13,167 bases of DNA from a virus. The stretch spans positions 1-13,167 of IMG/VR virus record IMGVR_UViG_3300021387_000118; one strand, 5' to 3'. The translations under genes were made by a program, and so were the position numbers. Below, in pieces: positions 192 to 13,167 of this stretch (position 1 is the first letter of the stretch; the number at the start of each line of letters is the position of its first letter). A model generated the notes under the pieces. That model was not told the origin of the DNA, ran no database searches, and saw only the letters and a list, made by a program, of their open reading frames with translations.

Positions 192-218
192 ATAGAGTTT
201 TTGGTTGGAGGAAAACCT

Positions 219-431
219 ATGACCGAGAAAAAATTATATACTTGTGATATTTGCAAAACCGATTATGCCAGTAAAGAAAAAGCTATTCAATGTGAAAAGA
301 ATCATAAGCTGTTAGAAACCGCGACAATAGTTGGAGTTTATAAATCTATGAACTCCATCAAAGAGGGTGTTCCCACAAAAATAAGAGTTAAATTTAAAGG
401 CATGGATGAGTTCATAGAATATGGGAGGTAA
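219..431 (+). CDS. small hypothetical protein (70 aa) with Cys-rich N-terminus (CDIC...C..C), possible zinc ribbon
   Basis: GGAGG at 207-211 lies 7 nt before ATG 219. The stop TAA at 429-431 overlaps the RBS of the next gene. Confidence 0.6.
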   Translation: MTEKKLYTCDICKTDYASKEKAIQCEKNHKLLETATIVGVYKSMNSIKEGVPTKIRVKFKGMDEFIEYGR

Positions 432-433
432 AG

Positions 434-661
434 ATGAATAATTATAATACAGCAACCACAGAAGAAATATCTCTTGCATTAAGAAAAGTTAAAGAACTTG
501 CCACAATGAGTCTTGTTTGGTCAAGACCTGTTTGTAAGCAGTGTGAATTTTATGATTTTAATGAGATGTCGGACGAATCATATTGTATAGCTAAAGATTA
601 TGAACCAATTCATCTTTATAGAAAGCATCGTCCTGATTGGTGTCCGAGATTGAACAAATAA
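434..661 (+). CDS. small hypothetical Cys-containing protein (75 aa; CKQC...C...C)
   Basis: GGGAGG at 423-428 lies 5 nt before ATG 434. Matches the ORF track. Confidence 0.65.
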   Translation: MNNYNTATTEEISLALRKVKELATMSLVWSRPVCKQCEFYDFNEMSDESYCIAKDYEPIHLYRKHRPDWCPRLNK

Positions 662-769
662 AATAAGTTTGTGAACGGAGATATAATTGCTCCTGTTGGA
701 TGGTTTGGACTTTGCGGGATGAAAAAACCGTGATGAAAACAGGAGTATGTATTACAGCTAGGAGACAGA

Positions 770-967
770 ATGAAACATACAAAACAAGAATATATTGATT
801 TCTTTACCCATATGGAACAAGAAGAAATTCACAATGGGCCTCTGGATGGACAGGCTTGGGACGAAGTTGATTGGTGGATCTATTATGCAGTAGATGTAGA
901 CAAGACACTCACAGAGGATGAACTAAAGGGCATGTTTCCGAACTTGTTCAGATGGGAGGACGAATGA
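770..967 (+). CDS. hypothetical acidic small protein (65 aa)
   Basis: AGGAGA at 760-765 precedes ATG 770. The stop overlaps the next start in an ATGA arrangement at 964-967. Confidence 0.6.
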   Translation: MKHTKQEYIDFFTHMEQEEIHNGPLDGQAWDEVDWWIYYAVDVDKTLTEDELKGMFPNLFRWEDE

Positions 968-1491
968 AAGTTATAACTGCACCGGAGTATTATGAGCCAC
1001 ATGATAAAGATATTTCAGTGTTTCTGGCTGGTGGTATTACGAATTGTCCTGATTGGCAGTCACGGGTAATTAAAACTATAAAAGATGACTATAGTGTAAT
1101 TAGTGATTCACTTGTATTATTTAATCCACGTCGTGAAAATTTTCCAATTCATGATAAACTCGCGGCAATACAGCAAATATTATGGGAGTTTGATATGATT
1201 GAAAAGTGCAATATTTTTTCAATTTATTTTTCATCTGGGGATAGTGATCAGCCGATTTGTATGTATGAACTTGGACGCAATATTTTGAGAATGCAGATGA
1301 GATTCCCATCTGATTGGGAAGACAGAATTATTATCAGTGTCGAAGATGGCTATAGACGCAAACAGGATGTGTTAATTCAGACCGAATTGGCAACAAATAG
1401 TAAGATTTTTGTTAATACACAAGTTTCTAAAGACATAGGTATGGAGTATCACATTCAAAATATAATGAGAGCGTTTAAGAAATTCAGATAG
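964..1491 (+). CDS. nucleoside 2-deoxyribosyltransferase-like protein (PF05014/DUF4406-like Rossmann fold)
   Basis: N-terminal VFLAGGIT resembles the NDT IYFGAGWF motif. DSDQPICMYELGRN resembles the NDT catalytic-Glu motif (G.GMELGYA). GGAGG at 955-959 precedes ATG 964. The alternative start is ATG 952. Confidence 0.55.
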   Translation: MKVITAPEYYEPHDKDISVFLAGGITNCPDWQSRVIKTIKDDYSVISDSLVLFNPRRENFPIHDKLAAIQQILWEFDMIEKCNIFSIYFSSGDSDQPICMYELGRNILRMQMRFPSDWEDRIIISVEDGYRRKQDVLIQTELATNSKIFVNTQVSKDIGMEYHIQNIMRAFKKFR

Positions 1492-1527
1492 TGGATTATT
1501 AATGAGTTTTTGATAGGAGAGAATAAA

Positions 1528-1761
1528 ATGGATTTTTCGCTAGGTGGAATACCAATTTATAACGCAAGAAATATAGAGTGGAAATCAAATGGCGATGGTA
1601 CTGGGCAGCTCTGGTTTAATACTGTGGTTGCAGATAAAAACGGCAAAGAGCAAGATGTAAGATTTCATATATTCAGATTAAAGTTTGATGACCCGTTAAT
1701 ATCTATTGAATCAGTTGATAATAAATTATACGAGATTGAAACGGTAGATCATTCATTCTAA
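1528..1761 (+). CDS. hypothetical protein (77 aa)
   Basis: The conserved junction cassette TTTTGATAGGAGAG ends 8 nt before ATG 1528. The track ORF begins at an upstream TTG in the same frame. Confidence 0.6.
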   Translation: MDFSLGGIPIYNARNIEWKSNGDGTGQLWFNTVVADKNGKEQDVRFHIFRLKFDDPLISIESVDNKLYEIETVDHSF

Positions 1762-1787
1762 TAAAAAGATAATTTAATGGTAAATAA

Positions 1788-1985
1788 ATGATAGGTAAAT
1801 GTCTAAACAACTGTGATAATAAAACCAAAGATGGATATTGCAAAACTACTGGATGTATAAACTCTCAATACCGACAATATCTAACTACGGGTATCGAAGA
1901 TGGATGGATTAAAGTTGATAAACAAACATGGAGAGAGTATCAAATGATGAAAGATCCAGACTACGGAGTTGGAAAATTTAGTTAA
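1788..1985 (+). CDS. small Cys-rich hypothetical protein (65 aa; C..NC...C...C)
   Basis: It is a track ORF with only a weak RBS, but it fits the co-directional packing. Confidence 0.4.
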   Translation: MIGKCLNNCDNKTKDGYCKTTGCINSQYRQYLTTGIEDGWIKVDKQTWREYQMMKDPDYGVGKFS

Positions 1986-2147
1986 TAAATAACTTTTTAT
2001 GCCTGAGATGGTATGCGATTGAGGAAATGAACTCATGATTTAAAAACTAATCATTTAAGCGGTGGGTTAGGATTAGCTCCGAAAGGTAACCATGTCCAAG
2101 GATGAAGCAACTACCGCATAAGAAGACTATTTAATGAGGATCATTGA

Positions 2148-2360
2148 ATGCGTTTATATGAAATCGAAGCAGATTATCGACCGAAGAATCCAAAGAAGCC
2201 CAAATATTATGTCTGGGCAGACACGACTAAAGATGCAAAATTGGTTTTTAACAATATAATCAGTTGGCTTACGATTTATAATGTCGCTCCAATGAACAAA
2301 GAAGACTCTGATAAGATATGTAATGAACCAGATAAGTATATAATCATAGGAAAAAAGTAA
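2148..2360 (+). CDS. hypothetical basic protein (70 aa)
   Basis: GAGGA at 2134-2138 lies 9 nt before ATG 2148. The stop overlaps the start of the next gene (TAATG). Confidence 0.55.
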   Translation: MRLYEIEADYRPKNPKKPKYYVWADTTKDAKLVFNNIISWLTIYNVAPMNKEDSDKICNEPDKYIIIGKK

Positions 2361-2791
2361 TGTATAAACAAATAATCATAGTTCGTAAAGACTTAAATAT
2401 GGGCCACGGCAAGATGGCTGCGCAAGTTGCACATGCTTCAATGTCGTTCTTATCATGGTTTGTAAGAGATAATGCTGACCAAGATGGTCATATTGACGCT
2501 TGGTTTGACAAGGATATCTTAGATAACTGGCTGAATGGCATTTATACTAAGGTTGTGTTACAGGCCAAGAATAAGGGTCAACTAGAGAAAGCAATTATCC
2601 TAGCTAATGAAATAGGCTTGGTGGAGGGGAAAGATTATTTTTTAATCAAAGATAACTGCCTTACAGAGCTTGAGCCGGAAGAAGTTGATGAATATGGTGT
2701 TGGTAGAACATTGACTTGTATTGGATTTAAACCGATGGATTCCGAAGTAATAGACAAGGTTGCCAAGAAGTTTCATATTTATGTAGATTAA
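2360..2791 (+). CDS. pth2: peptidyl-tRNA hydrolase, PTH2 family
   Basis: IIIVRKDLNMGHGKMAAQVAHAS matches the PTH2 signature (VVRxDLxMGKGKxAAQCxHAA). The C-terminal GRTLTCIGFKP...IDKV matches PTH2 (QTVLGIGPGP..IDKV). The TAATG overlap links it to the upstream gene. Confidence 0.85.
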   Translation: MYKQIIIVRKDLNMGHGKMAAQVAHASMSFLSWFVRDNADQDGHIDAWFDKDILDNWLNGIYTKVVLQAKNKGQLEKAIILANEIGLVEGKDYFLIKDNCLTELEPEEVDEYGVGRTLTCIGFKPMDSEVIDKVAKKFHIYVD

Positions 2792-2835
2792 CCAATAAAT
2801 AAGAGTAATACAAGTTGTATTGAAGGATTGTGAGA

Positions 2836-3018
2836 ATGAACAATAAAATAATCTTAGACAATAAAGAAATGTTTGTCGCAGTACAAGAGTATTTATCTAA
2901 AAGAAATATTGAATTACCAGAAGATGTTTCTGTTACTATGAAACTAAAGAAAAGATTGCCAGGAGATCCATTTCCAGATGATTATATTCCGTATATAGAG
3001 GTTGAATATAATGTATGA
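2836..3018 (+). CDS. hypothetical protein (60 aa)
   Basis: AAGGA at 2822-2826 precedes ATG 2836. The track ORF starts at an upstream GTG in the same frame. Confidence 0.5.
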   Translation: MNNKIILDNKEMFVAVQEYLSKRNIELPEDVSVTMKLKKRLPGDPFPDDYIPYIEVEYNV

Positions 3019-3244
3019 ATATATAAATTGTCCCGTCTGCGGAACGCGCAATGAATATACTACTTATTCTGAATTGGGGTTCGGAATAATCGAGCGACAT
3101 TATCATTGTCCTAGATGTACATATTTCGTTGAACAAGCATATAGTCCAGTATGTGTCGGAATTAGTACAGACTGTCCAGAAGAATATCTTGAAAGAGCCA
3201 AAGAGTTGAAATTGGATTTTTATCAGCCGGATGAGATACCGTGA
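3011..3244 (+). CDS. zinc-ribbon protein (CPVCG ... CPRC), 77 aa
   Basis: GAGG at 2998-3001 lies 9 nt before ATG 3011. It carries two CxxC pairs. It overlaps the 3' end of the upstream gene by 8 nt. Confidence 0.6.
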   Translation: MYEYINCPVCGTRNEYTTYSELGFGIIERHYHCPRCTYFVEQAYSPVCVGISTDCPEEYLERAKELKLDFYQPDEIP

Positions 3245-3312
3245 AAGTATGTTGGGTGTAAATCCTAACTCACAGAAAATATTGGGAATGTATGGATTGA
3301 AAGAAGTGTTTT

Positions 3313-3564
3313 ATGAGTAAGAGAAGAAAAGGCCGATCAATTGACCATCATTGGCAATTTGTAAAATATAAAGGTGACGGAGCGTTCTATGCTAAATGCA
3401 GTTGCGGATTTCATTATGGATGTGATAAGCCAAAATACGAAAATTCTAGTATCCCAACAGTCCCATCACCTGAGAAGTTATATAACTACTGCCCACATTG
3501 TGGAGCGAGAAAAACAAGATATTATGATGAACCAATATATATTGATAAGTATTGGTTTGAGTAA
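3313..3564 (+). CDS. zinc-finger-like protein (CSCG ... CPHCG), 83 aa, basic N-terminus
   Basis: It is a track ORF with a weak SD. The overlapping frame at 3374..3568 is less gene-like. Confidence 0.5.
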   Translation: MSKRRKGRSIDHHWQFVKYKGDGAFYAKCSCGFHYGCDKPKYENSSIPTVPSPEKLYNYCPHCGARKTRYYDEPIYIDKYWFE

Positions 3565-3576
3565 ATGAGGATTGAT

Positions 3577-3774
3577 ATGAGTGTTGAAGGATTTTTGCTT
3601 AAAAGAAGAAGGTTTAGAACTACTCACAACATGTATCAACTAACTTGCGACGATGAACATTTTGATTTGGATATGGCGGTTAGCTTATTGGAAAATATTG
3701 GGAAAGTGGCAGAAGATGGTAAAGAGATGTGGACAATAGTTCCACCAGGATATAAATGGAGTGTTGTAAAATGA
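3577..3774 (+). CDS. hypothetical protein (65 aa; 69 aa if started at ATG 3565)
   Basis: GAGGA at 3567-3571 lies 5 nt before ATG 3577. The in-frame ATG 3565 abuts the upstream stop and is the alternative start. Confidence 0.5.
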   Translation: MSVEGFLLKRRRFRTTHNMYQLTCDDEHFDLDMAVSLLENIGKVAEDGKEMWTIVPPGYKWSVVK

Positions 3775-4145
3775 CAAGAGTAATAATTGCGGGGAGCAGA
3801 CAGTTTAATGATTATCATAAGATGTTAACAGAATTGGACAACCTTGGAATTCATTTTATCAATACCATAGATCCAATAGAGATTGTTAGTGGTCATGCTT
3901 CTGGTGCTGATGCTCTTGGCGAAAGATTTGCTAAAGAATATAATTATCCGCTCAAGACATTCCCCGCCGAATGGAATAAATACGGGAAAGCTGCCGGACC
4001 AATCCGCAATGAACAGATGGCTAAATATGCAGCAGAGGCTGATCGAGGGATTTTGATTGCGTTCCCAATTGGAGAGAGTAGGGGAACTAACAATATGATT
4101 AAACTAGCAAAACAGTATGGCCTAGAAGTAAACGTGGTGTATTGA
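3771..4145 (+). CDS. SLOG-superfamily (DprA/LOG-like; DUF2493-like) Rossmann protein
   Basis: VIIAGSRQF is a Rossmann beta1 strand. GHASGADALGERFA matches the GxARGxDxxA motif. AGPIRNEQM matches the GPxRNxxM motif. ATGA overlaps the upstream stop. The alternative start is ATG 3756 with AGGA at 3747-3750. Confidence 0.55.
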   Translation: MTRVIIAGSRQFNDYHKMLTELDNLGIHFINTIDPIEIVSGHASGADALGERFAKEYNYPLKTFPAEWNKYGKAAGPIRNEQMAKYAAEADRGILIAFPIGESRGTNNMIKLAKQYGLEVNVVY

Positions 4146-4166
4146 TTAAATACTTTTATACTACTA

Positions 4167-4195
4167 TTGACAACAAGTAGATAAAAAAGTATAAT
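4167..4195 (+). promoter_or_regulatory. perfect sigma-A/sigma-70 consensus promoter TTGACA-N17-TATAAT
   Basis: TTGACA sits at 4167-4172, the spacer is exactly 17 nt, and TATAAT sits at 4190-4195. It lies in the 79-nt gap before the gene at 4225. Confidence 0.75.
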
Positions 4196-4224
4196 CAATA
4201 TAAATTATTAAAAGGAGAAAACCA

Positions 4225-4584
4225 ATGGCTGGATTAGAAGAACTTAAAACTGTTTACAAAATGATTAAGAATTATTATGGATATAAATGTACAGATGTAA
4301 TTTTCCGCAAAGATGAAGATGACGAATTCTGTGAGTTAGTTTTTGAGTATCAGGGGTTCCCAGTAAAGACAATATTCTCTTATGGGTTTTGCACTAATGT
4401 GATATACCCTAATAATGATGAAGTAACTATCATTGGCAATGATGAAAAGAATGGGGCAGTTCTTTCGACCACGGTTTATTTCGCTATCTGCGATTTTATT
4501 AAGACTATTAATAAGAATAGATTCGATAATGAAGCTATAAATGCATTCATTGATTATCTGTGGGATGATGTTATAAATGTATAA
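4225..4584 (+). CDS. hypothetical protein (119 aa)
   Basis: AAAGGAG lies about 7 nt before ATG 4225. It is the first gene downstream of the consensus promoter. Confidence 0.65.
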   Translation: MAGLEELKTVYKMIKNYYGYKCTDVIFRKDEDDEFCELVFEYQGFPVKTIFSYGFCTNVIYPNNDEVTIIGNDEKNGAVLSTTVYFAICDFIKTINKNRFDNEAINAFIDYLWDDVINV

Positions 4585-4604
4585 TTAAATGAAGAGGAAT
4601 GAAT

Positions 4605-5099
4605 ATGCTATCTCAATCCAACATTGATAAACTTCATGTAAATGGTATTTATAAATGCGAACCCGTATTGAGTTGGTTACCATTCTATAAACGAGATAAT
4701 CCTTACTGGTGTCGCAACTGGACGTTTAAGGTTAAAGAATATAAAGGTCACTATGCTATGTATGATACTTACTGGTCAACAGGTGACGATTATCCAATAG
4801 AACTTACAGATGAGAATTTTGATAAATTTGAATATCTGTTTGATTTGGATGATATTCGGTATATACATGATTATGAAAGCTGGCTTGAATATCCAGAAGA
4901 AGATAGATGGAGAGTGCCACTAGATTCTGGCGGCACCAATCATGCAAAATATGTTGTTCGGCGTGGAGCCAAGAGGGTTAAGGAACGAGTTATCGAGAGA
5001 ATGCAGCGTGATATTGATTGCTTAAAGCATGAGTTATCTCAGAAAGGGCGGATCCTCGAAGGGATTATCAATGGTAGTATTGATTGGAATATATGCTGA
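4605..5099 (+). CDS. hypothetical protein (164 aa), Trp/Tyr-rich
   Basis: GAGG at 4594-4597 lies 7 nt before ATG 4605. ATG 4599 is too close to the SD. Confidence 0.6.
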   Translation: MLSQSNIDKLHVNGIYKCEPVLSWLPFYKRDNPYWCRNWTFKVKEYKGHYAMYDTYWSTGDDYPIELTDENFDKFEYLFDLDDIRYIHDYESWLEYPEEDRWRVPLDSGGTNHAKYVVRRGAKRVKERVIERMQRDIDCLKHELSQKGRILEGIINGSIDWNIC

Positions 5100-5162
5100 T
5101 GGAGAGTGTGATGTGGGATCCAGAAACTGATGCTTGCGATTATTGAAAGGAGAGGACAACTC

Positions 5163-5324
5163 ATGGATCAAGCACATATGATAAAAGACCTTGAAATTGC
5201 AAAATGCATACTGAGTAATTTAAACACCCCACTTGATGGGATGATGAGAGTCTGTATTGGGCAAATTATATCGGAAGCAATTGACGCATTAAAAATAGAG
5301 GAGAAACATAATGAGGATAATTAA
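5163..5324 (+). CDS. small hypothetical protein (53 aa)
   Basis: AAAGGAGAGG at 5146-5155 lies 7 nt before ATG 5163. The track ORF from 5130 lacks an RBS. Confidence 0.5.
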   Translation: MDQAHMIKDLEIAKCILSNLNTPLDGMMRVCIGQIISEAIDALKIEEKHNEDN

Positions 5325-5712
5325 TCGAAATGAATTAGCAAAGATGCCAAATGGCACGGTGTTCTCATCATTTGATGGTTATAGTGTTGACGGATTTGAA
5401 ATTATAACAGGCAGCCATGGTGATGGATTTAATGGTACGCTTGATCTGGAACCAAGTTTTAATTGGGATAGTGATCATGCGGAACGTATTACTAACTGGT
5501 CAACTGTAGATACCGCCGATTATGATTTTGATGAGGATGCCAAGTTCGTTGTTTATAGTAAGAATGAAATACGTGAAATAATTCAGTGGCTAAAATGGGC
5601 CATTGACGAAGACGGACATCCTGATATGGAAAAGTATTTTTATAAAAACCAAGTAATGTCGGAGGGGGAAGCTTCAAAATATACTAATGGTCATGGCTTA
5701 TGGTGGGGATAA
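5311..5712 (+). CDS. hypothetical protein (133 aa)
   Basis: GAGGAG at 5298-5303 lies 7 nt before ATG 5311. Confidence 0.65.
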   Translation: MRIINRNELAKMPNGTVFSSFDGYSVDGFEIITGSHGDGFNGTLDLEPSFNWDSDHAERITNWSTVDTADYDFDEDAKFVVYSKNEIREIIQWLKWAIDEDGHPDMEKYFYKNQVMSEGEASKYTNGHGLWWG

Positions 5713-5724
5713 AACAAGATTTCA

Positions 5725-5904
5725 ATGCCTAATTATGTAAGATGCATTCAGTTAGAACCTGGATTAAAATTATATTATAGTAATAAAGAACAATGTTTAA
5801 GAACATCGGAAGAATTAACAAATGCCGGATTTAAGAATCGTGTTGCATATAATTATGACGGTGATTTTTGGAGTATATATGTATTAGATGAAACAAGTCT
5901 TTGA
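5725..5904 (+). CDS. small hypothetical protein (59 aa), below the ORF-track cutoff
   Basis: It fills an otherwise empty gap. It ends ...DETSL with its stop inside the conserved junction cassette (AAGTCTTTGATAGGAG). The SD is weak. Confidence 0.4.
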   Translation: MPNYVRCIQLEPGLKLYYSNKEQCLRTSEELTNAGFKNRVAYNYDGDFWSIYVLDETSL

Positions 5905-5919
5905 TAGGAGAAAAAATAT

Positions 5920-6120
5920 ATGTACGATCCTGAAGAAATAAATAAAAATCCTTGGTGGTGGATAAGAAATAGAGGAAAAATTAATGATGCTCTTGAAGTA
6001 ATAGATCTTGCTTTAGAAGAATATGATGAGGGACGCGGGTTGGCATTTTCTGATATTCCAGATAAATTTAAAGATATCAAAAATTTCTTTAATGATGTTT
6101 GCTATCCTGATTGGAAGTGA
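5920..6120 (+). CDS. hypothetical Trp-rich protein (66 aa)
   Basis: The junction cassette TTTGATAGGAGAAAAAATAT precedes ATG 5920. Confidence 0.6.
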   Translation: MYDPEEINKNPWWWIRNRGKINDALEVIDLALEEYDEGRGLAFSDIPDKFKDIKNFFNDVCYPDWK

Positions 6121-6144
6121 AAATTAGATTTTATTGGAGAATTT

Positions 6145-6429
6145 ATGAAGAAGATTGATGAAGGAAATATGAGTGGACTTCGTGATTGGTGTGCTATGCA
6201 TGGTATAATATACGTGCAATGGTATCCATATGATAATTGTTCTGGTTATTACATAGAGAATCCATCAGAGGATGCATTGGAAAAATTCTATGAAAATGTT
6301 AATGCGTCTGATCCATATCATAGATCTTTTGTTTTAATATTGGGGAAGACTGAAACTCATAATAATTTGAACATGAGAACTATTGATGAATATATACAAC
6401 ATGGTATATTACCTTTTCTATTTTGTTGA
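6145..6429 (+). CDS. hypothetical protein (94 aa) carrying an LRDWC motif
   Basis: The cassette TTTTATTGGAGAATTT precedes ATG 6145. It contains a 17-nt exact repeat shared with the gene at 7415. Confidence 0.6.
   Translation: MKKIDEGNMSGLRDWCAMHGIIYVQWYPYDNCSGYYIENPSEDALEKFYENVNASDPYHRSFVLILGKTETHNNLNMRTIDEYIQHGILPFLFC
6177..6193 (+). repeat. 17-nt exact repeat ACTTCGTGATTGGTGTG (copy 1, inside the gene at 6145)
   Basis: The identical 17-mer recurs at 7558-7574 inside the gene at 7415. Both copies encode LRDWC. Confidence 0.8.
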
Positions 6430-6455
6430 AAAACTGAATTTGATTGGAGAAAAAT

Positions 6456-6791
6456 ATGAGTTATAACGAGAACGGTATTTGTAAATTCGCAATAGAACGA
6501 GAAGACGGTCATGGTGAGCAGCAACGTCATCCGTTACAGCTGGTGGCAAGAATAGATGTTGATGACCTGGTAAAGCTATTCGATGAAGCCCCGACAAATT
6601 TTGATGGCGAGAACCCCATTTGTAAAGTAAAAGATCCAATTAAATTTACGAAGTTTGTCATCAGGAGATTATGGGACGATGCACCATATGAAGCTGATGA
6701 TGTTGTTTGGGCACAGCCGTTGACTTATATCTTTGAACAATTACTAGAAGATTATAGGCCGGAGTTTCTGGAGTATTTTGATGAGGTATGA
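6456..6791 (+). CDS. hypothetical acidic protein (111 aa)
   Basis: The cassette TTTGATTGGAGAAAAAT precedes ATG 6456. The track ORF starts at an upstream TTG in the same frame. Confidence 0.6.
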   Translation: MSYNENGICKFAIEREDGHGEQQRHPLQLVARIDVDDLVKLFDEAPTNFDGENPICKVKDPIKFTKFVIRRLWDDAPYEADDVVWAQPLTYIFEQLLEDYRPEFLEYFDEV

Positions 6792-6821
6792 AATTGAGGT
6801 TTTATCGGAAAAGAGGTAAAA

Positions 6822-6989
6822 ATGTTTAAATTTGAAAAAATAGCCGAAATAAGGACTGTTAGCGGGAAAGTGACAAAAGAGGTTGTTGAAGCCCTCATAG
6901 ATAAAGGGTTTTATTTATGCCTTGACGGAAATTATGCAATGGATGGATGCGATTTTATTGTAATGAAAAAAGCATCTGATGAAAACTAA
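6822..6989 (+). CDS. small hypothetical protein (55 aa), below the ORF-track cutoff
   Basis: AAGAGG at 6811-6816 lies 5 nt before ATG 6822. It fills a 190-nt gap in the same orientation. Confidence 0.5.
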   Translation: MFKFEKIAEIRTVSGKVTKEVVEALIDKGFYLCLDGNYAMDGCDFIVMKKASDEN

Positions 6990-7017
6990 GTTTTATTGGA
7001 ATTTTGAAGTGATATTT

Positions 7018-7197
7018 ATGAAGAAAATACTAATAGTTAAAAATGGCAATACCCCAATGGGAATATTCGAGACAGAAAGAGTTGAAGAACACTGGAGTTG
7101 GGGAAAGCATTGGTTTGACTTTCAATTGAAAGATGGAAGTAGATCAGTAGATTATCAGATGCCTTTATGCCACTACTATATTTTGAAAAAGAAATAA
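7018..7197 (+). CDS. small hypothetical protein (59 aa)
   Basis: A cassette variant AAGTTTTATTGGAATTTTGAAGTGA precedes ATG 7018. The in-frame ATG 6979 is the alternative start, but it lies inside the upstream small ORF. Confidence 0.45.
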   Translation: MKKILIVKNGNTPMGIFETERVEEHWSWGKHWFDFQLKDGSRSVDYQMPLCHYYILKKK

Positions 7198-7214
7198 GTT
7201 TTATGGGAAGTAAT

Positions 7215-7394
7215 ATGGATATATATAAACTAATAGATTACTACATTGACAAATATTTAGAAGAAAAGGAACATCAAACAGATGGTTATACTCGTGCTGG
7301 GATGTTACAGGGATTATTATGGATTTGTCGCTTTGGTGGCGTAACAGATGAGAACCTTGGTGATGATAGATTAATAAAGATATCTAGCAAATGA
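7215..7394 (+). CDS. small hypothetical protein (59 aa)
   Basis: The cassette variant AAGTTTTATGGGAAG ends 5 nt before ATG 7215. The alternative start is ATG 7203. Confidence 0.5.
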   Translation: MDIYKLIDYYIDKYLEEKEHQTDGYTRAGMLQGLLWICRFGGVTDENLGDDRLIKISSK

Positions 7395-7414
7395 AATAAA
7401 CGCTTGGAGGCACT

Positions 7415-7594
7415 ATGACAAATTTTGAAAAATATATAAATAGCTTAACACAGGATAAGTTCATAGATTCGATGATACTAAACTGCGATGGTTGTCCAGC
7501 GTATCCATGTAATGATGAAAATATTACAGAAGACAATGGGCTTGATTGCGAAGAAAAACTTCGTGATTGGTGTGAAACTGAAAGAAGTCTTTGA
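7415..7594 (+). CDS. small Cys-rich protein (59 aa; CDGCPAYPC ... LRDWC), below the track cutoff
   Basis: GGAGG at 7406-7410 lies 4 nt before ATG 7415. Its stop sits inside the junction cassette. It shares the 17-nt repeat with the gene at 6145. It is preferred over the overlapping ORFs at 7384..7698 (-) and 7488..7796 (+). Confidence 0.55.
   Translation: MTNFEKYINSLTQDKFIDSMILNCDGCPAYPCNDENITEDNGLDCEEKLRDWCETERSL
7558..7574 (+). repeat. 17-nt exact repeat ACTTCGTGATTGGTGTG (copy 2, inside the gene at 7415)
   Basis: See copy 1. Confidence 0.8.
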
Positions 7595-7606
7595 TGAGGA
7601 AAAAAT

Positions 7607-7888
7607 ATGTATAGAGAGATGCCACCAGATGCAATGCAACCACATGATACTTGGATTATTGCCTTTTGCCCAGATACAGATTCGTTCTTTGTCACCAATC
7701 AGAGGGCATTCTACTGGGAATCCGAAGAAGAATTTGAATCAGAAGAAGCTGGAATATATTTCTTTGAGCATCAGATTCAATACTTCATTGATGTAGAAGA
7801 AAAATTAATGAGCGACATGTTTATTAATGATTGGAATACTGATCGTGTTTTTCTGGAGAACACAAATAGACGATATCTTAAAAGCTAA
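7607..7888 (+). CDS. hypothetical acidic protein (93 aa)
   Basis: The cassette AAGTCTTTGATGAGGAAAAAATAT precedes ATG 7607. Confidence 0.6.
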   Translation: MYREMPPDAMQPHDTWIIAFCPDTDSFFVTNQRAFYWESEEEFESEEAGIYFFEHQIQYFIDVEEKLMSDMFINDWNTDRVFLENTNRRYLKS

Positions 7889-7906
7889 GTTTAATTGGAG
7901 AATGTA

Positions 7907-8230
7907 ATGGTAGCAAGATGTGGGAATACTGGTGTTACTGTTGGCAGCGAATGGTGTGGATTATGCCGAGTGCATGGATGCGAAGGATATAAATTATTTA
8001 AACAATCATGTAAGAATGGCGAACAATTTAATGAAGGAGAAGCTATGGTAGAAATTAATGATGTGAATCTTAACAAAGAACTTATGTGTGAGATTAGAAT
8101 TCCTATAGGAGTTAATAGAGAGACAATTACAAATCCTTTTAAGATACTTGGATTTGATGTAAGACAAATTGGCAGCCTTTCTAATGGTGATATTATTTAT
8201 GAGGTGGTTGATAAACCTAAGGTGAGATAA
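7907..8230 (+). CDS. Cys-rich (C..C..C...C) hypothetical protein (107 aa)
   Basis: The cassette AAGTTTAATTGGAGAATGTA precedes ATG 7907. The track ORF starts at an upstream TTG in the same frame. Confidence 0.6.
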   Translation: MVARCGNTGVTVGSEWCGLCRVHGCEGYKLFKQSCKNGEQFNEGEAMVEINDVNLNKELMCEIRIPIGVNRETITNPFKILGFDVRQIGSLSNGDIIYEVVDKPKVR

Positions 8231-8252
8231 TTATGAATGGGAGATATTAGAT

Positions 8253-8606
8253 ATGAAGAGCTGTCCAAATTGTGGCGCACCATTTGAACCTTATAAATGC
8301 AAGTGTGAATTTTGCGGCACATGGTACTTTGATTTCACTGCATTTGATATGAGTGAGAATGTACCATACTATGTAAAGTTTAGAACGCCATATGGAATAA
8401 TTACTACATTGGCTAGACCGGAATTACAGACAATTGAAGTAAATGACGATTATTATTATGCCTGTAATTCAAGGGGTAATAAAATTGCTAAAATTGTTGG
8501 GAACAGAAGCTGTGATCTTAATGTAACATTTCATTCACAGATTGATCCAGAAACTGAAACGTTGTATCAGTTGGAAGTATCTAATGAAAATGGAATAGAA
8601 AAATGA
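8253..8606 (+). CDS. zinc-ribbon protein (CPNCG ... CKCEFCG N-terminus), 117 aa
   Basis: GGGAGA at 8239-8244 lies 8 nt before ATG 8253. It has an N-terminal Cys4-type ribbon. Confidence 0.65.
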   Translation: MKSCPNCGAPFEPYKCKCEFCGTWYFDFTAFDMSENVPYYVKFRTPYGIITTLARPELQTIEVNDDYYYACNSRGNKIAKIVGNRSCDLNVTFHSQIDPETETLYQLEVSNENGIEK

Positions 8607-8656
8607 TTTAATGAGTAAAAAAGAATGAATGAGGAGTAATCCTGAAGGAAATAATT

Positions 8657-8923
8657 ATGAGATATTTTAAATGTGCAGCGATTAGATACAAGACAGGTGA
8701 AGACATCTGGACAGAAAGACGAGGCAAAAGACATCATGAAATTATTAAAGCAATTCATGATGCTGGAGAAACAGAGCAGTATAAGAAATGTCATGTGGAT
8801 GGATTTATAATCGGAGAAAGTTGGACCGCAGAATTTGTAGACCGAGAAACTGCTACAGAAATCGCCAAAGAAATGGGGATTAAAATGCGAGGTTGTGTTC
8901 TAACATCTGAAGATTTGTGGTAA
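8657..8923 (+). CDS. hypothetical protein (88 aa)
   Basis: GAAGGA at 8643-8648 lies 8 nt before ATG 8657. Confidence 0.6.
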   Translation: MRYFKCAAIRYKTGEDIWTERRGKRHHEIIKAIHDAGETEQYKKCHVDGFIIGESWTAEFVDRETATEIAKEMGIKMRGCVLTSEDLW

Positions 8924-8946
8924 TAAGTTAATAAGAGGAGTCCATA

Positions 8947-9123
8947 ATGATGGAACGATGTGAATATTGTGAGTATCGTAATGGCTGGGAATGTAGTGAT
9001 GGATACTATAGAGTTTCTAATGATAAGATGTGCGAGAGGTTTAAGTTAGATTTCGACACGCTAAGTGATGGTGTTAAACGTCAGATCCAGAAGCGATTGA
9101 TTGGCGAGTTGGAATGGATTTAA
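8947..9123 (+). CDS. small zinc-binding-like protein (58 aa; CEYCEY ... C ... C), below the track cutoff
   Basis: AGAGGAG at 8934-8940 lies 6 nt before ATG 8947. It fills a gap and ends with TAA at 9121-9123. Confidence 0.5.
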   Translation: MMERCEYCEYRNGWECSDGYYRVSNDKMCERFKLDFDTLSDGVKRQIQKRLIGELEWI

Positions 9124-9127
9124 GAAA

Positions 9128-9436
9128 ATGATGAATTGTGATAATTGCAGATATTATGAATGGTATTATGATTATTGTAGTAAATGGAAATGCAAAGTAG
9201 ATTCGAGAGAGGTTCATGATTGTTTTAAACCCCGTGAAAATAATATGGTTAATAAAATATTAAGAAAAGACTTTAGCAATCCGAATAAGTTGGTTGCTGG
9301 ATATGAAGTAGTAGATGAAGAGCCGGAAGAAATAACTTTTAAGTATTCAGATTTCGAAGTATTCCACAGTGGAAACGCTGCAATCTGGTCTCCGTTGGTT
9401 TGGCAACTAAGATATAATTATGGATTGTATAAATGA
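9128..9436 (+). CDS. Cys-rich hypothetical protein (102 aa; CDNC ... C..C.C)
   Basis: ATG 9128 is 4 nt after the upstream stop, suggesting translational coupling. The SD is weak. The track ORF starts at an upstream TTG in the same frame. Confidence 0.5.
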   Translation: MMNCDNCRYYEWYYDYCSKWKCKVDSREVHDCFKPRENNMVNKILRKDFSNPNKLVAGYEVVDEEPEEITFKYSDFEVFHSGNAAIWSPLVWQLRYNYGLYK

Positions 9437-9446
9437 GGAAATAACA

Positions 9447-9755
9447 ATGTTATTAGATATTATAACTTCGACAAAGATTGGCATTTTTTATTTAGATAAA
9501 GGTTGGAAAGACGATGTTTATGAGAAAATTAGAGCCGATGCTTTAAAGTGTGAGACTCTTAAGTATTTCAATAAAAATGAAATATGCTTTGCTGACAAGC
9601 ATATAAAGATATGTATTTATTTTTATCCGGTAGATAATAATGTTAGAGGATGCAGATTTGATCGAGTTTATTATCAGCAGGGCATAGATAGAGATGTTTT
9701 ATTAAGTCGAGCTGCACCAAAGATATTAACAAGGATGTATCCGCTAGATGTTTAA
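9447..9755 (+). CDS. hypothetical protein (102 aa)
   Basis: GAGGAA at 9433-9438 lies 8 nt before ATG 9447. Confidence 0.55.
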   Translation: MLLDIITSTKIGIFYLDKGWKDDVYEKIRADALKCETLKYFNKNEICFADKHIKICIYFYPVDNNVRGCRFDRVYYQQGIDRDVLLSRAAPKILTRMYPLDV

Positions 9756-9768
9756 TAGGAGGAAAATA

Positions 9769-9966
9769 ATGAAGAAAAAAGAACATATGAGAATTATGAA
9801 TAAGGCAACTATTAAGGTATTCTTTAAAGATGGTAACGTTGATGAGATCCCGTCCAGGATCTGGGATGACTATCAGTATATTGATAGGCTGTTTGTTGTT
9901 AAGAGACGTGGAGTTTGGATTGGAATTTACAACATGGATGGAGTAGATTGTATTACCATCGGATAA
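9769..9966 (+). CDS. small basic hypothetical protein (65 aa)
   Basis: AGGAGG at 9756-9761 lies 7 nt before ATG 9769. Confidence 0.6.
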   Translation: MKKKEHMRIMNKATIKVFFKDGNVDEIPSRIWDDYQYIDRLFVVKRRGVWIGIYNMDGVDCITIG

Positions 9967-9984
9967 GAAGAATGGAGTATTGTA

Positions 9985-10644
9985 ATGAGTAATTATGTAA
10001 TTCACGCTTGCCCTAAGAGATTGTGGTATGTAGAAGAATTTCTCGTACCATCACTCAAAGAACAGGGCATAGAGAATATTGACGTAAGATGTGACAACTT
10101 TAAGCGTGGTAATCTTTTGTATTGTATGGATATCTTTGGAAGAATGACCGGAGATGGTGGCAGTTGGCACATACAGGACGATGTGGTTATTTGCCGAGAT
10201 TTCGCTCAACGTACTGCTAAGTATGATGGCAAGAATGAAATAGTGTGTGGCTTTGCTTGGGATAAAGATCCTAACATAGACAAAATCGACCATGTGCAGC
10301 AATCTGATATGTGGTACTCATTTCCTTGTATATATATCCCTAACTACATTGCCAAGGAATGTTCTGAATGGTTTTTCAATAAAGGACGATATGATGGAAG
10401 ATATTTATCATTTAGCGTTAAAGGCCAGTTCGATGATTATTTCTTCCAGAAGTATCTGATGGAGTATTATCCAGAACTTCCCGTTCTACATATTAAGCCG
10501 AGTCTTGTTGATCATATTGATTACCTAATTGGTGGAACAACAGTGGAAGCTATTGGCAGAGACGAGGTTAGTAGAGCAAAGTGGTTTGATGATCCTGATC
10601 TTGTTAATCAATTAAAGGAGAGGTTAAAATACAGAAATGGCTAA
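9985..10644 (+). CDS. first copy of a tandem paralog pair: GT-A-fold/DxD-like putative glycosyltransferase (219 aa)
   Basis: GGAG at 9974-9977 lies 7 nt before ATG 9985. DGGSWHIQDDVVI resembles the GT-A (h)GG(v)Y(l)DxDhh motif. The C-terminal LVDHIDYLIGG has an H-x-D pair. It is clearly paralogous to the ORF at 10637..11302. Confidence 0.6.
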   Translation: MSNYVIHACPKRLWYVEEFLVPSLKEQGIENIDVRCDNFKRGNLLYCMDIFGRMTGDGGSWHIQDDVVICRDFAQRTAKYDGKNEIVCGFAWDKDPNIDKIDHVQQSDMWYSFPCIYIPNYIAKECSEWFFNKGRYDGRYLSFSVKGQFDDYFFQKYLMEYYPELPVLHIKPSLVDHIDYLIGGTTVEAIGRDEVSRAKWFDDPDLVNQLKERLKYRNG

Positions 10645-11302
10645 TTATTTAATTCATGCTTGTCCAGAACGAATGTGGTATGTGGATAATTATCTGGTGC
10701 CATCACTTCGTAATCAGGGTATTAATAATATTATTGTCAGTTGTGATCAGTTACATTTGGGGAATCTAGAAAGTTGTATGAAGATTTTCGGTTCTCTGGA
10801 AGACGATGGTTATGGTACATGGCATCTGCAAGATGATGTGATTATATGCCGGAACTTTCGGGAAATTACCGAGAGATATGATTATGGTGTTGTTTGCGGT
10901 TTCACTCATTCACGATCTGCTAACACTGGATTTGTTTTACCGGATAAGATGTGGTACTCATTTCCATGTATTAGAATATCTAACGGGATAGCCAAAGAAT
11001 GTTCACAGTGGTACTATTCGTTCGCTAAGAAATATGCTAAATATTATGAATGGGTTCATATGGGGAAATGTGATGATAATTTCTTCTATGAATTCATGAA
11101 TAAGTATTGTTCTACATTAGATGTATTAAATCTAGTTCCTAATTTGGTTGATCATATTGATTACCTTCTGGGAGGATCAATGGTTAACCAATACAGGAAT
11201 GGCGAACAATTTAGATCAGCTTACTTTGAGGATGTTGATCTTGTAGATCAATTAGCTAATGATATAAGGAGAAATAATAATGGTACGAATGCTTCATTAT
11301 GA
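10637..11302 (+). CDS. second copy of the tandem paralog pair: GT-A-fold/DxD-like putative glycosyltransferase (221 aa)
   Basis: It shares with the upstream ORF the blocks YxIHACPxRxWYV..LVPSL, WHxQDDVxICRxF, MWYSFPCI, IAKECSxW and LVDHIDYLxGG. It overlaps the upstream stop by 8 nt. AAGGAGAGG lies upstream. Confidence 0.6.
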   Translation: MANYLIHACPERMWYVDNYLVPSLRNQGINNIIVSCDQLHLGNLESCMKIFGSLEDDGYGTWHLQDDVIICRNFREITERYDYGVVCGFTHSRSANTGFVLPDKMWYSFPCIRISNGIAKECSQWYYSFAKKYAKYYEWVHMGKCDDNFFYEFMNKYCSTLDVLNLVPNLVDHIDYLLGGSMVNQYRNGEQFRSAYFEDVDLVDQLANDIRRNNNGTNASL

Positions 11303-11591
11303 TGATCGTAAAGAAGAACGTCAATCGCATGAGATCTATTTTCAACTGTCTGGCGATGATGATTTTAAAAACTTCTTTGGGGCTGAAGGTGATGGTCATG
11401 TGACTGAATTGAGTTTGGCAAGTCTACGTGCATATGGGGCAACTAAGGAAGAAGCTCTCAAGAACATGGAACCTATCATGGAATGGTTAGCTGCCGAAAT
11501 CCAGGCAATCTACCTTCTCTATCAAGATGGATTTTATGATAAAAATGTTATTGACGTTGATGCTGCTGGTATACCTATAGGAGAAGAATGA
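11280..11591 (+). CDS. HicB/UPF0150-like domain protein (103 aa)
   Basis: AGGAG at 11266-11270 lies 9 nt before ATG 11280. ELSLASLRAYGATKEEALKNMEPIMEWL resembles the UPF0150/HicB N-domain motif (PxLPG..a.G.T.EEAL.N..EAi..wl). Confidence 0.4.
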   Translation: MVRMLHYDDRKEERQSHEIYFQLSGDDDFKNFFGAEGDGHVTELSLASLRAYGATKEEALKNMEPIMEWLAAEIQAIYLLYQDGFYDKNVIDVDAAGIPIGEE

Positions 11592-11914
11592 TGAAATATC
11601 GTATTAAAGAAATCCTTCATAGCGGCAGAAAAGATACTAGGAATAAGCCAGTTGACTCACCTAAGTTTGATGGCATGATTGGTTCTATTATCGAACTCAA
11701 GTATATAGAAGATCCCAATATGAATATAACTGAGATTGATAATATAGAAGATATTAAACAGTTTAGTTTAGTTGGATGGGATTTTTTATCTGGAGATGCT
11801 CCGTATGAGTATTGGGAAACTACTGCCGTTATAGCGATTTATCTGGATTATAATGATGTGTATCACATCGAAACTGCTAATACTATTTATAAACTGGAAA
11901 AAATCGAAGACTAA
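11588..11914 (+). CDS. hypothetical protein (108 aa)
   Basis: AGGAGAAG precedes the ATGATG at 11588/11591. ATGA overlaps the upstream stop. Confidence 0.55.
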   Translation: MMKYRIKEILHSGRKDTRNKPVDSPKFDGMIGSIIELKYIEDPNMNITEIDNIEDIKQFSLVGWDFLSGDAPYEYWETTAVIAIYLDYNDVYHIETANTIYKLEKIED

Positions 11915-11943
11915 TTTATTGAAAATATATAAAATGTGTCAGA

Positions 11944-11972
11944 TTGTCATTCTAGTATGTGAGTAGTATAAT
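11944..11972 (+). promoter_or_regulatory. near-consensus sigma-A promoter TTGTCA-N17-TATAAT
   Basis: TTGTCA sits at 11944-11949, the spacer is 17 nt, and TATAAT sits at 11967-11972. It lies in the 98-nt gap upstream of the HPr-like gene. Confidence 0.7.
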
Positions 11973-11980
11973 TAATTTCG

Positions 11981-11998
11981 TTAATAATTAATTATTAA
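11981..11998. promoter_or_regulatory. perfect 18-bp palindrome TTAATAATTAATTATTAA directly downstream of the -10; candidate operator
   Basis: The 18 bases are exactly self-complementary. They sit between the TATAAT box and the RBS of the gene at 12013. Confidence 0.4.
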
Positions 11999-12012
11999 AC
12001 AAGAGGTAACAT

Positions 12013-12255
12013 ATGAGAATTCTATTGGACTTGGATCTGGAAAAAATCAACGATCTATGCAAGATTTGCGACACATCATCATTAGATGTTAATGTTGTTT
12101 CTGGCAGTTTGATTGTTGACGGTTGTTCAGTGATGGGTGTCATGGGGTTGTGCGATAGAGTTGTTGAATTAAAACCTGTAACAACAGATCCCATGGAAAT
12201 TGCAGCATTTTTTGAAAGAGTAAAGCCGTTAGGCGCATATTTCAGTAAGGAGTAA
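12013..12255 (+). CDS. HPr/Crh-like phosphocarrier-fold protein lacking the His15 active site
   Basis: DVNVVSGSLIVDGCSVMGVMGLCDRVVEL aligns to the HPr segment [32 protein letters not shown], so the Ser46 region is conserved. The N-terminal LDLEKINDL has no equivalent of the GIHARPA His15 loop. AGAGG lies 6 nt before ATG 12013. Confidence 0.5.
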   Translation: MRILLDLDLEKINDLCKICDTSSLDVNVVSGSLIVDGCSVMGVMGLCDRVVELKPVTTDPMEIAAFFERVKPLGAYFSKE

Positions 12256-12260
12256 AAATT

Positions 12261-12686
12261 ATGAAGAGAAAGAGTATTCAGAACAAAAATTTTAAGATTA
12301 TCCCCGAAGCAAAGCTTGTACAGGGCGAAATGCCGGAAAAGCTTATTGCGTATGATTTGACTGCTGGAATTAAGAGTAAGTATAAGGATCTTATTTTAGC
12401 GGCATCATTTGAATATGAAGATGACTGGTTCCCGTGTGACAATGTAATTACCGCTAATGCTTACTGCGATGAAAAGGATGAGTGGGATGAGAAGGTTGGC
12501 ACCGATGTTTGTGCTGCCAAGTTGGAACTGAAGAATCACCAGAAGCTCGCTAAGAAGTACGATAGAATTGCTAGAGATCTTCAGGAAGCCTGTCTGATCG
12601 CCCAGAGTTATTGCATTCGACATGAAGCAAAGGCTATGTCTATTGAGGATGATCTGATACAGTATCACGGAAGGTTGCCGATGTGA
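12261..12686 (+). CDS. hypothetical protein (141 aa)
   Basis: AAGGAG at 12244-12249 lies upstream of ATG 12261. Matches the ORF track. Confidence 0.6.
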   Translation: MKRKSIQNKNFKIIPEAKLVQGEMPEKLIAYDLTAGIKSKYKDLILAASFEYEDDWFPCDNVITANAYCDEKDEWDEKVGTDVCAAKLELKNHQKLAKKYDRIARDLQEACLIAQSYCIRHEAKAMSIEDDLIQYHGRLPM

Positions 12687-12697
12687 GGAGGAACTAA

Positions 12698-13167
12698 ATG
12701 GAGTTTGTAAATGAAATCATTAACAATATCTGGAAAGACAGATATAGAAAGAATAATGAAACACTTGAGGGTAATTTTAGAAGAGTTGCGAAGTTTTGTG
12801 CGAAAGATAAAAATGATGAAAATGACTTTTTTAATGTTATGGACAGAGGTCTTTTTTATCCGGCTGGAAGAACTATGAGTAATTCTGGTGTTGGTACAAA
12901 ACTAACTCTTAATAATTGCTTTACGGCTCCCCAAATTGGAGATAGCTACGATGAAATATTTGACAGAGTAAGACTTGGGGCAGTTACTCATCAGCGCGGT
13001 GGAGGTATTGGATATGATTTCTCGCAGCTTCGTCCTAAAGGATCTCCTACTTCTAATAACGCAGTTGCTTCTGGACCAGTGAGTTTTATGGATGTTTTTA
13101 ATGCACAGACAGAGACTACAATCCAGGGGCAACGCCGTGGAGCAAATATGGGTATTATGAATGTATA
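12698..13167 (+). CDS. nrdJ: ribonucleotide reductase catalytic subunit, N-terminal part (runs off the window); most consistent with class II adenosylcobalamin-dependent NrdJ
   Basis: GAGGAGG at 12685-12691 lies 6 nt before ATG 12698. LNNCF, RGGGIGYDFSQLRPKGS, ASGPVSFMDVF and QRRGANMG match the RNR active-site and N-terminal signatures (compare Thermotoga NrdJ: LSACFV, GGGTGFSFSRLRPKG, ASGPVSFMRVFD, KRRGANM). It is absent from the ORF track because there is no stop in the window. Confidence 0.8.
   Translation, partial: MEFVNEIINNIWKDRYRKNNETLEGNFRRVAKFCAKDKNDENDFFNVMDRGLFYPAGRTMSNSGVGTKLTLNNCFTAPQIGDSYDEIFDRVRLGAVTHQRGGGIGYDFSQLRPKGSPTSNNAVASGPVSFMDVFNAQTETTIQGQRRGANMGIMNV

Follow-up and report, generated by a model that had tools for sequence, protein, structure and literature searches.

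Carbon and energy signalling in Firmicutes has its hub in HPr. Ser46 of HPr and of Crh is the residue that HprK/P phosphorylates, the Ser-P forms of these proteins bind CcpA, and HPr/Crh variants that are not phosphorylatable can trap the kinase (PMC2788870). Crh is an HPr paralogue that is not phosphorylatable at position 15 and works solely through Ser46 (PMC2788870). Our literature searches turned up no phage protein for which an action on the HPr hub had been described, and no study of phage-encoded or histidine-less HPr-like proteins. Here, we describe an HPr-like protein encoded in a stretch of viral DNA of 13,167 nucleotides (IMG/VR virus record IMGVR_UViG_3300021387_000118, positions 1 to 13,167), which is called the window throughout. 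Its open reading frame (ORF) occupies positions 12013..12255 of the plus strand (ATG at 12013, TAA at 12253-12255) and codes for 80 residues (MRILLDLDLEKINDLCKICDTSSLDVNVVSGSLIVDGCSVMGVMGLCDRVVELKPVTTDPMEIAAFFERVKPLGAYFSKE), none of which is a histidine. A sequence-only reading of this stretch had aligned the ORF to the HPr core and had proposed its product as a decoy or mimic in the carbon catabolite control of the host. We found that the protein belongs, as a divergent member, to a large family of histidine-less HPr/Crh-like proteins. These are short, at about 72-90 residues, and are encoded on chromosomes of Clostridia and by phages of Clostridia.

Structural modeling and profile comparisons show that the ORF product is an HPr homologue with the fold of HPr. 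The AlphaFold2 model of the protein, which was calculated from a 9-sequence alignment, reached a pLDDT of 91.6 and a pTM of 0.79, and its secondary structure elements follow the order beta-alpha-beta-beta-alpha-beta-alpha. This is the open-faced beta-sandwich of HPr, which the protein should adopt if the assignment made from the letters alone was right. In Foldseek searches of the PDB, the best 34 matches were all HPr (probability 0.97-1.00, TM 0.57-0.68) and the Crh entries ranked lower. The best three structural matches in BFVD were gut-phage proteins labelled 'HPr domain' (TM 0.73-0.75). Since the model is confident and the top Foldseek matches are all HPr, the resemblance goes beyond chance.

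At the sequence level, the homology to HPr is seen indirectly, through the family profile, the Pfam matches of the relatives and hhalign, and not as a match of the single sequence to a model. The single sequence matched nothing in Pfam, PHROGs or the PDB sequences, even at E ≤ 10, and nothing in NCBIfam, and a 9-sequence profile found no match in the PDB. The profile of the 121-member family matched HPr (4.3e-8) and Crh (1.3e-5) in the PDB, with an alignment that begins at about HPr residue 19. Individually, 60 of the 121 members match Pfam PTS-HPr and 35 match PRK13782, which is the best NCBIfam model for the members and which we take to be the Crh model. When the 21-sequence clade around the window protein was compared by hhalign with HPr and Crh of B. 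subtilis, a probability of 93% and an E-value of 3e-7 were obtained. Here, Leu15 pairs with HPr Leu22 and Ser39 with Ser46, an offset of 7 (window stretch VDGCSVMGVMGL). Model, Foldseek, family profile and hhalign agree with one another, and the earlier alignment of the ORF to the HPr core is thereby confirmed.

To define the family, we carried out an exhaustive hidden Markov model search of 1.8 billion representative proteins, which returned 122 proteins at E ≤ 0.001; 121 short sequences were aligned. A word-indexed search with the family profile yielded at least 2017 clusters at E ≤ 1e-8. In the family-profile search, the nearest homologues (56-96% identical) scored E-values of 1e-25 to 2e-21, the window protein being the first row of the alignment. 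These closest relatives form eight clusters, all of which are metagenomic, and one of them lies on a 154-kb phage contig. The window protein shares the family traits: a length of 72-90 residues, a shortened link between beta1 and alpha1, no active-site histidine and the motif D-[GA]-x-S-x-[LM]-G. When its gene was compared with the copy at another phage locus (L004), 29 synonymous and 19 non-synonymous codon differences were counted, and the gene is shown at the codon level to be under purifying selection. None of the 121 members has a family in PHROGs. A megablast search with the whole window and a tblastn search with the HPr-like protein against 50,697 phage records returned no match, and a scan of GTDB genomes with the close-clade profile gave a sole match, which was spurious and lay in a sigma-factor-like ORF. 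Three long profile matches (P0035, P0066, P0080) were rejected as artefacts by Pfam scan, and two others (P0027, P0030) appear alike. A metagenomic protein of 157 residues (P0059) carries tandem histidine-less HPr-like domains in one polypeptide, where Pfam PTS-HPr matches two stretches (2e-14).

Many bacterial members of the family are metagenomic, and several belong to chromosomes of Clostridia (Thermoclostridium stercorarium and metagenome-assembled genomes of Acetivibrionales and Clostridiaceae) and are named 'HPr family phosphocarrier protein' by NCBI. The chromosomal members comprise 76-77 residues (e.g. MKTFNIMLKSINDVKDFVNIVNKYDFDVDLTSGRYIVDAKSIMGIFSLDL...), with the same shortened N-terminus and no loop histidine. 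Two of these genes, in Thermoclostridium stercorarium (L023, 7001-7231) and in an Acetivibrionales metagenome-assembled genome (L026, 7001-7234), are single genes that stand divergently beside a gene for a MiaB-like radical-SAM methylthiotransferase and ireB, a neighborhood kept in the two lineages. Among cultured phages, those of Enterocloster bolteae carry family members, and the member of Enterocloster phage PMBT24 (WDQ45469.1) is annotated 'phosphocarrier protein HPR', a gene that the PMBT24 genome paper does not mention. The window gene is no one-off phage invention, since the family includes the chromosomal Clostridia genes and the PMBT24 gene. Databases already label relatives of the window protein 'HPr family', and the window protein itself is neither a phosphocarrier of the sugar phosphotransferase system (PTS) nor a Crh orthologue. 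What is new here is a clade below the detection of Pfam and PHROGs, with a conserved Cys-x-x-Cys pair and an invariable placement at the head of phage ribonucleotide reductase (RNR) operons.

The window protein differs from HPr in the loop between beta1 and alpha1, which carries His15 in HPr. In the window protein, this loop is about 7 residues shorter and helix alpha1 starts at residue 9. With the offset of 7, Asp8 takes the His15 position, Glu10 the Arg17 position, and Cys16 and Cys19 the positions of the core residues Val23 and Ala26. Judged by the alignment, the active-site loop has been lost, in contrast to the substitution seen in Crh. Throughout the family, position 8 is typical of a helix cap (T, D, S or N), the Arg17-equivalent position is acidic (E or D) in 83 of the 121 relatives, and the H-x-R-P motif occurs in 0 of the 121 members. 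The sequence-only reading was thus correct in stating that there is no phospho-accepting loop and no phosphate at His15. Since there is no histidine and the loop is deleted, the protein cannot carry phosphate in the PTS, and His15 phosphotransfer is refuted. On the other hand, its description as similar to Crh, only more degenerate, did not hold, since Crh keeps the loop G-L-Q-A-R-P-A.

In contrast to the active-site loop, the region around Ser46 is retained, as had been claimed for the regulatory serine. The counterpart of Ser46 is Ser39 by hhalign, and this residue is a serine in 119 of the 121 relatives. Together with Asp36 (114) and Gly42 (113) it forms the best conserved columns of the alignment, all of which fall into the Ser46 loop. 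The window protein has all of D36, G37, S39 and G42, it contains the stretch SVMGVMGLC, and its motif at this site is C-S-V-M-G-V-M. SVMGVMG is of the Gram-positive HPr/Crh type (SIMGVMS, SIMGLMS) and not of the E. coli type. Residues Ile47, Met48 and Met51 of HPr helix alpha2 are matched by Val40, Met41 and Met44.

Downstream of the HPr-like gene, we found two further genes on the plus strand. The first one (12261..12686, starting 5 nt after the HPr-like stop codon) encodes a conserved protein of 141 residues, which we call p141. The second one begins 11 nt after the p141 stop and is the 5' part of a gene for the RNR large subunit (12698..13167), which runs off the window. The RNR assignment rests on matches to Pfam Ribonuc_red_lgN (8.4e-10) and Ribonuc_red_lgC (1.1e-16) and on a tblastn match to the class II reductase NrdJ of locus L001 (31% identity). 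Terminator prediction found no terminator within the unit formed by the three genes. There are no PTS genes near the HPr-like gene, the neighbors of which are p141, RNR and small phage ORFs.

To explore this arrangement, we compared the 12 distinct loci of the Cys-x-x-Cys clade (the window and L001, L002, L003, L004, L006, L011, L014, L015, L017, L019, L030), which span 43-96% identity to the window protein. In 12/12 loci, an RNR gene begins at most about 0.9 kb downstream of the HPr-like gene. This is a class II NrdJ in the window and in L001, L002, L004, L006, L011, L015 and L017, and a class III NrdD in L003, L014, L019 and L030. The upstream neighbor is variable, and p141 usually lies between the HPr-like gene and RNR. 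The RNR cassette is swapped between close relatives: across the HPr-like gene and p141, window and L001 DNA share 96-97% identity, and similarity breaks off exactly past the p141 stop codon (window 12687-13167, L001 9997-10480), the RNR N-termini sharing only ~31% protein identity. Similarly, NrdJ or NrdD is swapped between conserved flanks in L002 and L003. Outside the clade, the linkage is looser for members without the Cys pair. In L008, NrdJ follows 1.9 kb downstream of the HPr-like gene, within a ThyX/deoxyribosyltransferase/NrdJ/dUTPase cluster, and no RNR was found near the PMBT24, L020 and L021 members (no Cys pair) within the 5-8 kb flanks examined.

For p141 we found 32 homologous clusters of 141-148 residues, none of which is annotated, with the motif ANAYCDExDEFDEKxGxxVCxxKLELKNH. 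Its AlphaFold2 model (pLDDT 90.5) consists of a beta-sheet followed by a 60-residue helix, and searches of Pfam, PDB sequences and folds returned no match (PprA best, probability 0.38). At the p141 loci (window 12261-12686, L001 9571-9996, L028 5001-5426, L030 5001-5447), the gene is always directly upstream of a phage NrdJ or NrdD, and p141 is also found upstream of NrdD without an HPr-like gene.

Several additional features of these loci were noted. In L014, a phage-encoded gene for a formate/nitrite-transporter-like protein (5499-6104; Pfam Form_Nir_trans, 7e-29) separates p141 from a class III RNR that has an ATP-cone; many class III reductases use formate as their reductant. Interruptions are frequent in the RNR genes that follow the HPr-like gene (L015 4435-6972, L017 8949-12194, L019 8529-11795). 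In L015 and L017, gaps of 0.3-1 kb divide the tblastn matches to NrdJ, and the NrdD of L019 contains an intein with a LAGLIDADG homing endonuclease. L001 has two extra genes (6755-8901) between its 103-residue and 108-residue ORFs, which overlap in the window (11591-11588); one extra gene codes for 375 residues with a faint LAGLIDADG match and the other for 340 residues of an RlaP-like protein.

The cysteine pair of the window protein, Cys16 and Cys19, lies in the middle of helix 9-21 of the AlphaFold2 model. Over the whole family, position 16 is mostly Val (51) or Cys (39) and position 19 Cys (96) or Ala (11). Within the 21-sequence clade, which extends down to 34% identity, Cys19 is invariant and Cys16 is present in at least 90% of the sequences, and some members carry CxxCxxC plus extra cysteines. 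A redoxin of the thioredoxin, glutaredoxin or NrdH type was considered and rejected, as the fold is that of HPr and the CxxC is located mid-helix and not at the N-terminus of helix 1. The redoxin idea is further weakened because both cysteines take HPr core positions, where they alternate with Val or Ala.

From the pattern of conservation, our leading, still tentative account is that the window protein is a purely regulatory, protein-binding HPr module, which would act via HprK/P of the host and/or other HPr/Crh partners. The Ser46 loop together with helix alpha2 (D-G-x-S-[IVL]-[LM]-G-[VI]) is the most conserved part of the family and would be the working surface. This account is suggested because the conserved Ser46 surface is the HprK/P target and the partner-binding face of Firmicute HPr and Crh. 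HprK/P of the host would phosphorylate the window protein, or the window protein would bind HprK/P or HPr/Crh partners. Early in infection, the HPr-based carbon and energy signalling of the host would in this way be tapped or disturbed while the phage builds its supply of deoxynucleoside triphosphates (dNTPs). Thr, Asp and Asn would cap a helix equally well, yet they are hardly ever found in place of Ser39, and from this we infer that a phosphorylation site is favored. The Gram-positive-type motif S-[IV]-M-G-V-M would likewise suit a Crh-like substrate of HprK/P. It is plausible that the protein has a regulatory role exerted through its Ser46 surface, and it may act as decoy or mimic in host carbon catabolite control, as had been proposed before.

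There are several points that weigh against this account. Conservation of the serine may be structural. In its N-terminal half, the HPr interaction surface has been remodeled: the His15 loop is deleted and the Arg17 position is acidic, which takes away contacts made with CcpA by canonical HPr and Crh. This makes canonical CcpA co-repression unlikely and recognition by HprK/P uncertain. RNR lies downstream in 12/12 clade loci whatever its class, which argues for a role in nucleotide metabolism over one in carbon control, and the bacterial homologues are found in neither PTS nor ccpA/hprK contexts. Moreover, the link to Clostridia hosts comes from the hosts of the relatives and not from this phage's own. 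The invariant linkage to RNR points to a role that competes with that of a decoy or mimic, and an RNR-linked role is a serious rival to the regulatory module.

The strongest alternative, which we consider rather unlikely, is that the phage RNR/dNTP module uses the protein as an accessory factor, with or without p141, and that the HPr fold is a mere scaffold. The protein might serve as a subunit with a regulatory or chaperone function, or Cys16-x-x-Cys19 might make it a metal- or redox-active partner, and host carbon control would not be its target. The linkage to RNR in all 12 clade loci, with NrdJ or NrdD and despite a variable upstream neighbor, favors such a role, particularly since it outlasts the cassette swaps between the window and L001 and between L002 and L003. 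The conservation of C19 and C16 in the 21-sequence clade, the CxxCxxC members and the fact that p141 is RNR-linked even without the HPr-like gene point in the same direction. However, adjacency can be neutral, with the genes forming a shared module whose flanking genes are recombination anchors for RNR swaps. The cysteines occupy the buried positions of HPr Val23 and Ala26 and bacterial members have Val at both; as they alternate with Val, Ala and Ile in the family, they look like core packing and not like a redox or metal site. A mid-helix pair is also unlike the thioredoxin-type CxxC. Among more distant members, RNR is 1.9 kb away (L008) or absent from the 5-8 kb flanks examined (PMBT24, L020, L021). 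Finally, both adenosylcobalamin-dependent and glycyl-radical enzymes are served, which argues against class-specific chemistry.

A more specific proposal would make the Cys-x-x-Cys clade a dedicated partner of class II and class III phage RNRs, usually together with p141. It could sense the energy state of the host, through Ser39 phosphorylation by HprK/P, and relay it to dNTP synthesis, or be a metal- or redox-active accessory. We regard this as unlikely, but if true, a fold of sugar signalling would have been recruited to control nucleotide reduction.

A Crh-like action would require that HprK/P phosphorylates Ser39 and that the P-Ser form binds CcpA as co-repressor or as competitive decoy and so rewires carbon catabolite repression, and this scenario appears improbable to us. 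Clostridia hosts are assumed to use CcpA and HprK/P. The scenario is consistent with the retained HPr/Crh fold and Ser46 helix (Val40, Met41, Met44), with PRK13782 as best NCBIfam model for family members and with the occurrence of relatives in Clostridia and their phages. However, the Crh loop G-L-Q-A-R-P-A is deleted here, and Asp8 and Glu10 stand at the His15 and Arg17 positions. In CcpA-HPr-Ser-P structures, these positions contact acidic CcpA residues, so that repulsion would be expected. Moreover, there is no cre near the promoter, and the context is nucleotide and not carbon metabolism. That the protein works as PTS phosphocarrier HPr, an auxiliary metabolic gene boosting sugar uptake of the host, has practically no chance: its sole support is the database label 'phosphocarrier protein' of the relatives, and against it stand the lack of any histidine, the deleted loop, the absence of H-x-R-P from the 121 relatives and the lack of PTS genes nearby. 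The probability that remains beyond the regulatory module and the RNR accessory goes to something else.

The HPr-like gene is preceded by a predicted sigma-70/SigA-type promoter (TTGTCA-N17-TATAAT, 11944..11972, plus strand) and by a ribosome-binding site AGAGG (12002..12006, plus strand), which was read from the sequence and lies 6 nt before the ATG. The promoter agrees with the consensus in 11/12 positions, is the second best of the window and sits in a 98-nt intergenic gap (11915-12012, 20% GC) after the 108-residue ORF. For promoter matches of 11/12 or better, we counted 2 in the window compared with 1.13 per window in dinucleotide shuffles, and this count alone is not significant. However, the window is densely coding, and the two sites occupy two of its few intergenic gaps, each on the coding strand. 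The promoter of the sequence-only reading is thus present, but it is hardly private to the HPr-like gene. Because the intergenic gaps are only 5 and 11 nt long and no terminator is predicted, it most likely serves an operon that runs from the HPr-like gene through p141 to RNR.

Between the -10 hexamer and the ribosome-binding site lies a perfect, AT-only palindrome of 18 bp (TTAATAATTAATTATTAA, 11981..11998, no strand assigned), which corresponds to about +2 to +19 of the predicted transcript. Its length, perfection and position are as had been reported; the tight repressor control read into it does not follow, as the palindrome is kept in L001 alone. In this 96%-identical locus, promoter and palindrome are identical to those of the window and the three intergenic differences fall outside both, which would happen by chance in about one in three cases. 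In every other family locus examined, the palindrome is absent. In L002, L003, L004, L006, L008, L010, L011, L017 and L019, either the upstream ORF directly adjoins or overlaps the gene or there is no such site, and L014 has its own 10/12 promoter and no palindrome.

We also asked what else the palindrome might represent. An RNA hairpin or attenuator was rejected, as the folding energy (-1.2 kcal/mol, z = +1.0) is no better than that of shuffles; because no RNA hairpin is possible, any function of the palindrome would be at the DNA level. An NrdR box and a cre site were rejected for lack of a match to the respective consensus, and no Rfam match to a riboswitch or another family was obtained.

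It is conceivable, if doubtful, that the palindrome is a putative operator at which a dimeric phage or host repressor would shut the promoter. It is the longest palindrome of the window and has a single occurrence there even with 3 mismatches, and a protein bound at about +2 to +19 would block RNA polymerase. Moreover, its half-site, the 9-mer AATTATTAA, recurs at 4203-4211, 8 nt past the -10 hexamer of a second promoter (TTGACA-N17-TATAAT, 4167-4195), which has a 12/12 consensus match and occupies the gap preceding the ORF at 4225. The half-site is over-represented, with 5 copies in the window compared with 0.96 expected and 9 in L001 compared with 1.5, although these whole-locus shuffles do not reproduce AT-rich intergenic composition. 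Copies in L001 were noted at 289, 2198 and 4991, and several copies lie just upstream of ribosome-binding sites. Against an operator, a perfect palindrome of at least 18 bp was found in 37/500 dinucleotide shuffles of the window (7.4%), which is of modest significance, and the AT-only palindrome sits in a gap of 20% GC. Beyond L001 it is found in no family locus, and three intergenic differences are too few to indicate constraint. No candidate repressor was found, and the NrdR box and cre consensus are unmatched.

Elsewhere in the window, Pfam identified a nucleoside 2-deoxyribosyltransferase-like protein (952-1491, 9e-13), a PTH2-type peptidyl-tRNA hydrolase (2360-2791, 9e-24) and a YAcAr/SLOG-family protein (3756-4145, 1.5e-14). 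The other ORFs that were scanned gave no significant Pfam match.

Phages of gut and rumen Clostridia, like Clostridia themselves, commonly encode histidine-less HPr-fold proteins, as indicated by the at least 2017 clusters. Two ideas are raised by these data. Phages may interfere with signalling by HprK/P or by HPr partners, or an HPr fold may be an accessory of phage dNTP synthesis. Even if neither idea holds, a misleading 'phosphocarrier' annotation is corrected, since such proteins cannot be phosphocarriers.

When the window protein is compared with known systems, HPr itself (PtsH; PF00381, TIGR01003; B. subtilis PDB 2HPR, 1KKL, 2FEP) has the same fold and the same order of secondary structure elements. 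Homology extends from about residue 19 of HPr to the C-terminus, and Ser46 and helix alpha2 with S-[IV]-M-G-V-M are shared. In contrast to HPr, the window protein lacks His15, has a loop that is about 7 residues shorter and a Glu at the Arg17 position, and goes undetected by PF00381. Its gene lies in a phage RNR operon and not with ptsI.

Crh (PRK13782; PDB 1MU4, 1ZVV) resembles the window protein at the C-terminus (LAAYVQEE in Crh, LGAYFSKE in the window protein) and by hhalign (93%). However, in Crh His15 is replaced by Gln while the whole G-L-Q-A-R-P-A loop and Arg17 are kept, whereas the window protein has lost the loop and carries an acidic residue at the Arg17 position. For the window protein, phosphorylation by HprK/P and binding to CcpA or MgsA are putative.

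The histidine-less proteins of Clostridia, such as the 76-residue protein of Thermoclostridium stercorarium (P0197), share the shortened architecture, with D-[GA]-K-S-I-M-G-I and no loop histidine. Their identity to the window protein is about 29-35%; they are detected by Pfam and carry Val-x-x-Val where the phage clade of the window protein has Cys-x-x-Cys. Their genes are chromosomal and single, next to a MiaB-like radical-SAM gene and ireB and not in PTS operons, and our literature search found no paper on their function.

The phage HPr-domain proteins (PMBT24 WDQ45469.1; A0A8S5S213, A0A8S5S9E0, A0A8S5PSI8) are phage-borne like the window protein, comprise 79-88 residues and have the HPr fold. 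For A0A8S5S213, A0A8S5S9E0 and A0A8S5PSI8, the resemblance to the window protein is structural (the BFVD matches described above). The PMBT24 protein lacks the canonical His15 loop and has the same shortened architecture as the window protein, but unlike the window gene, its gene has no adjoining RNR and encodes no Cys pair.

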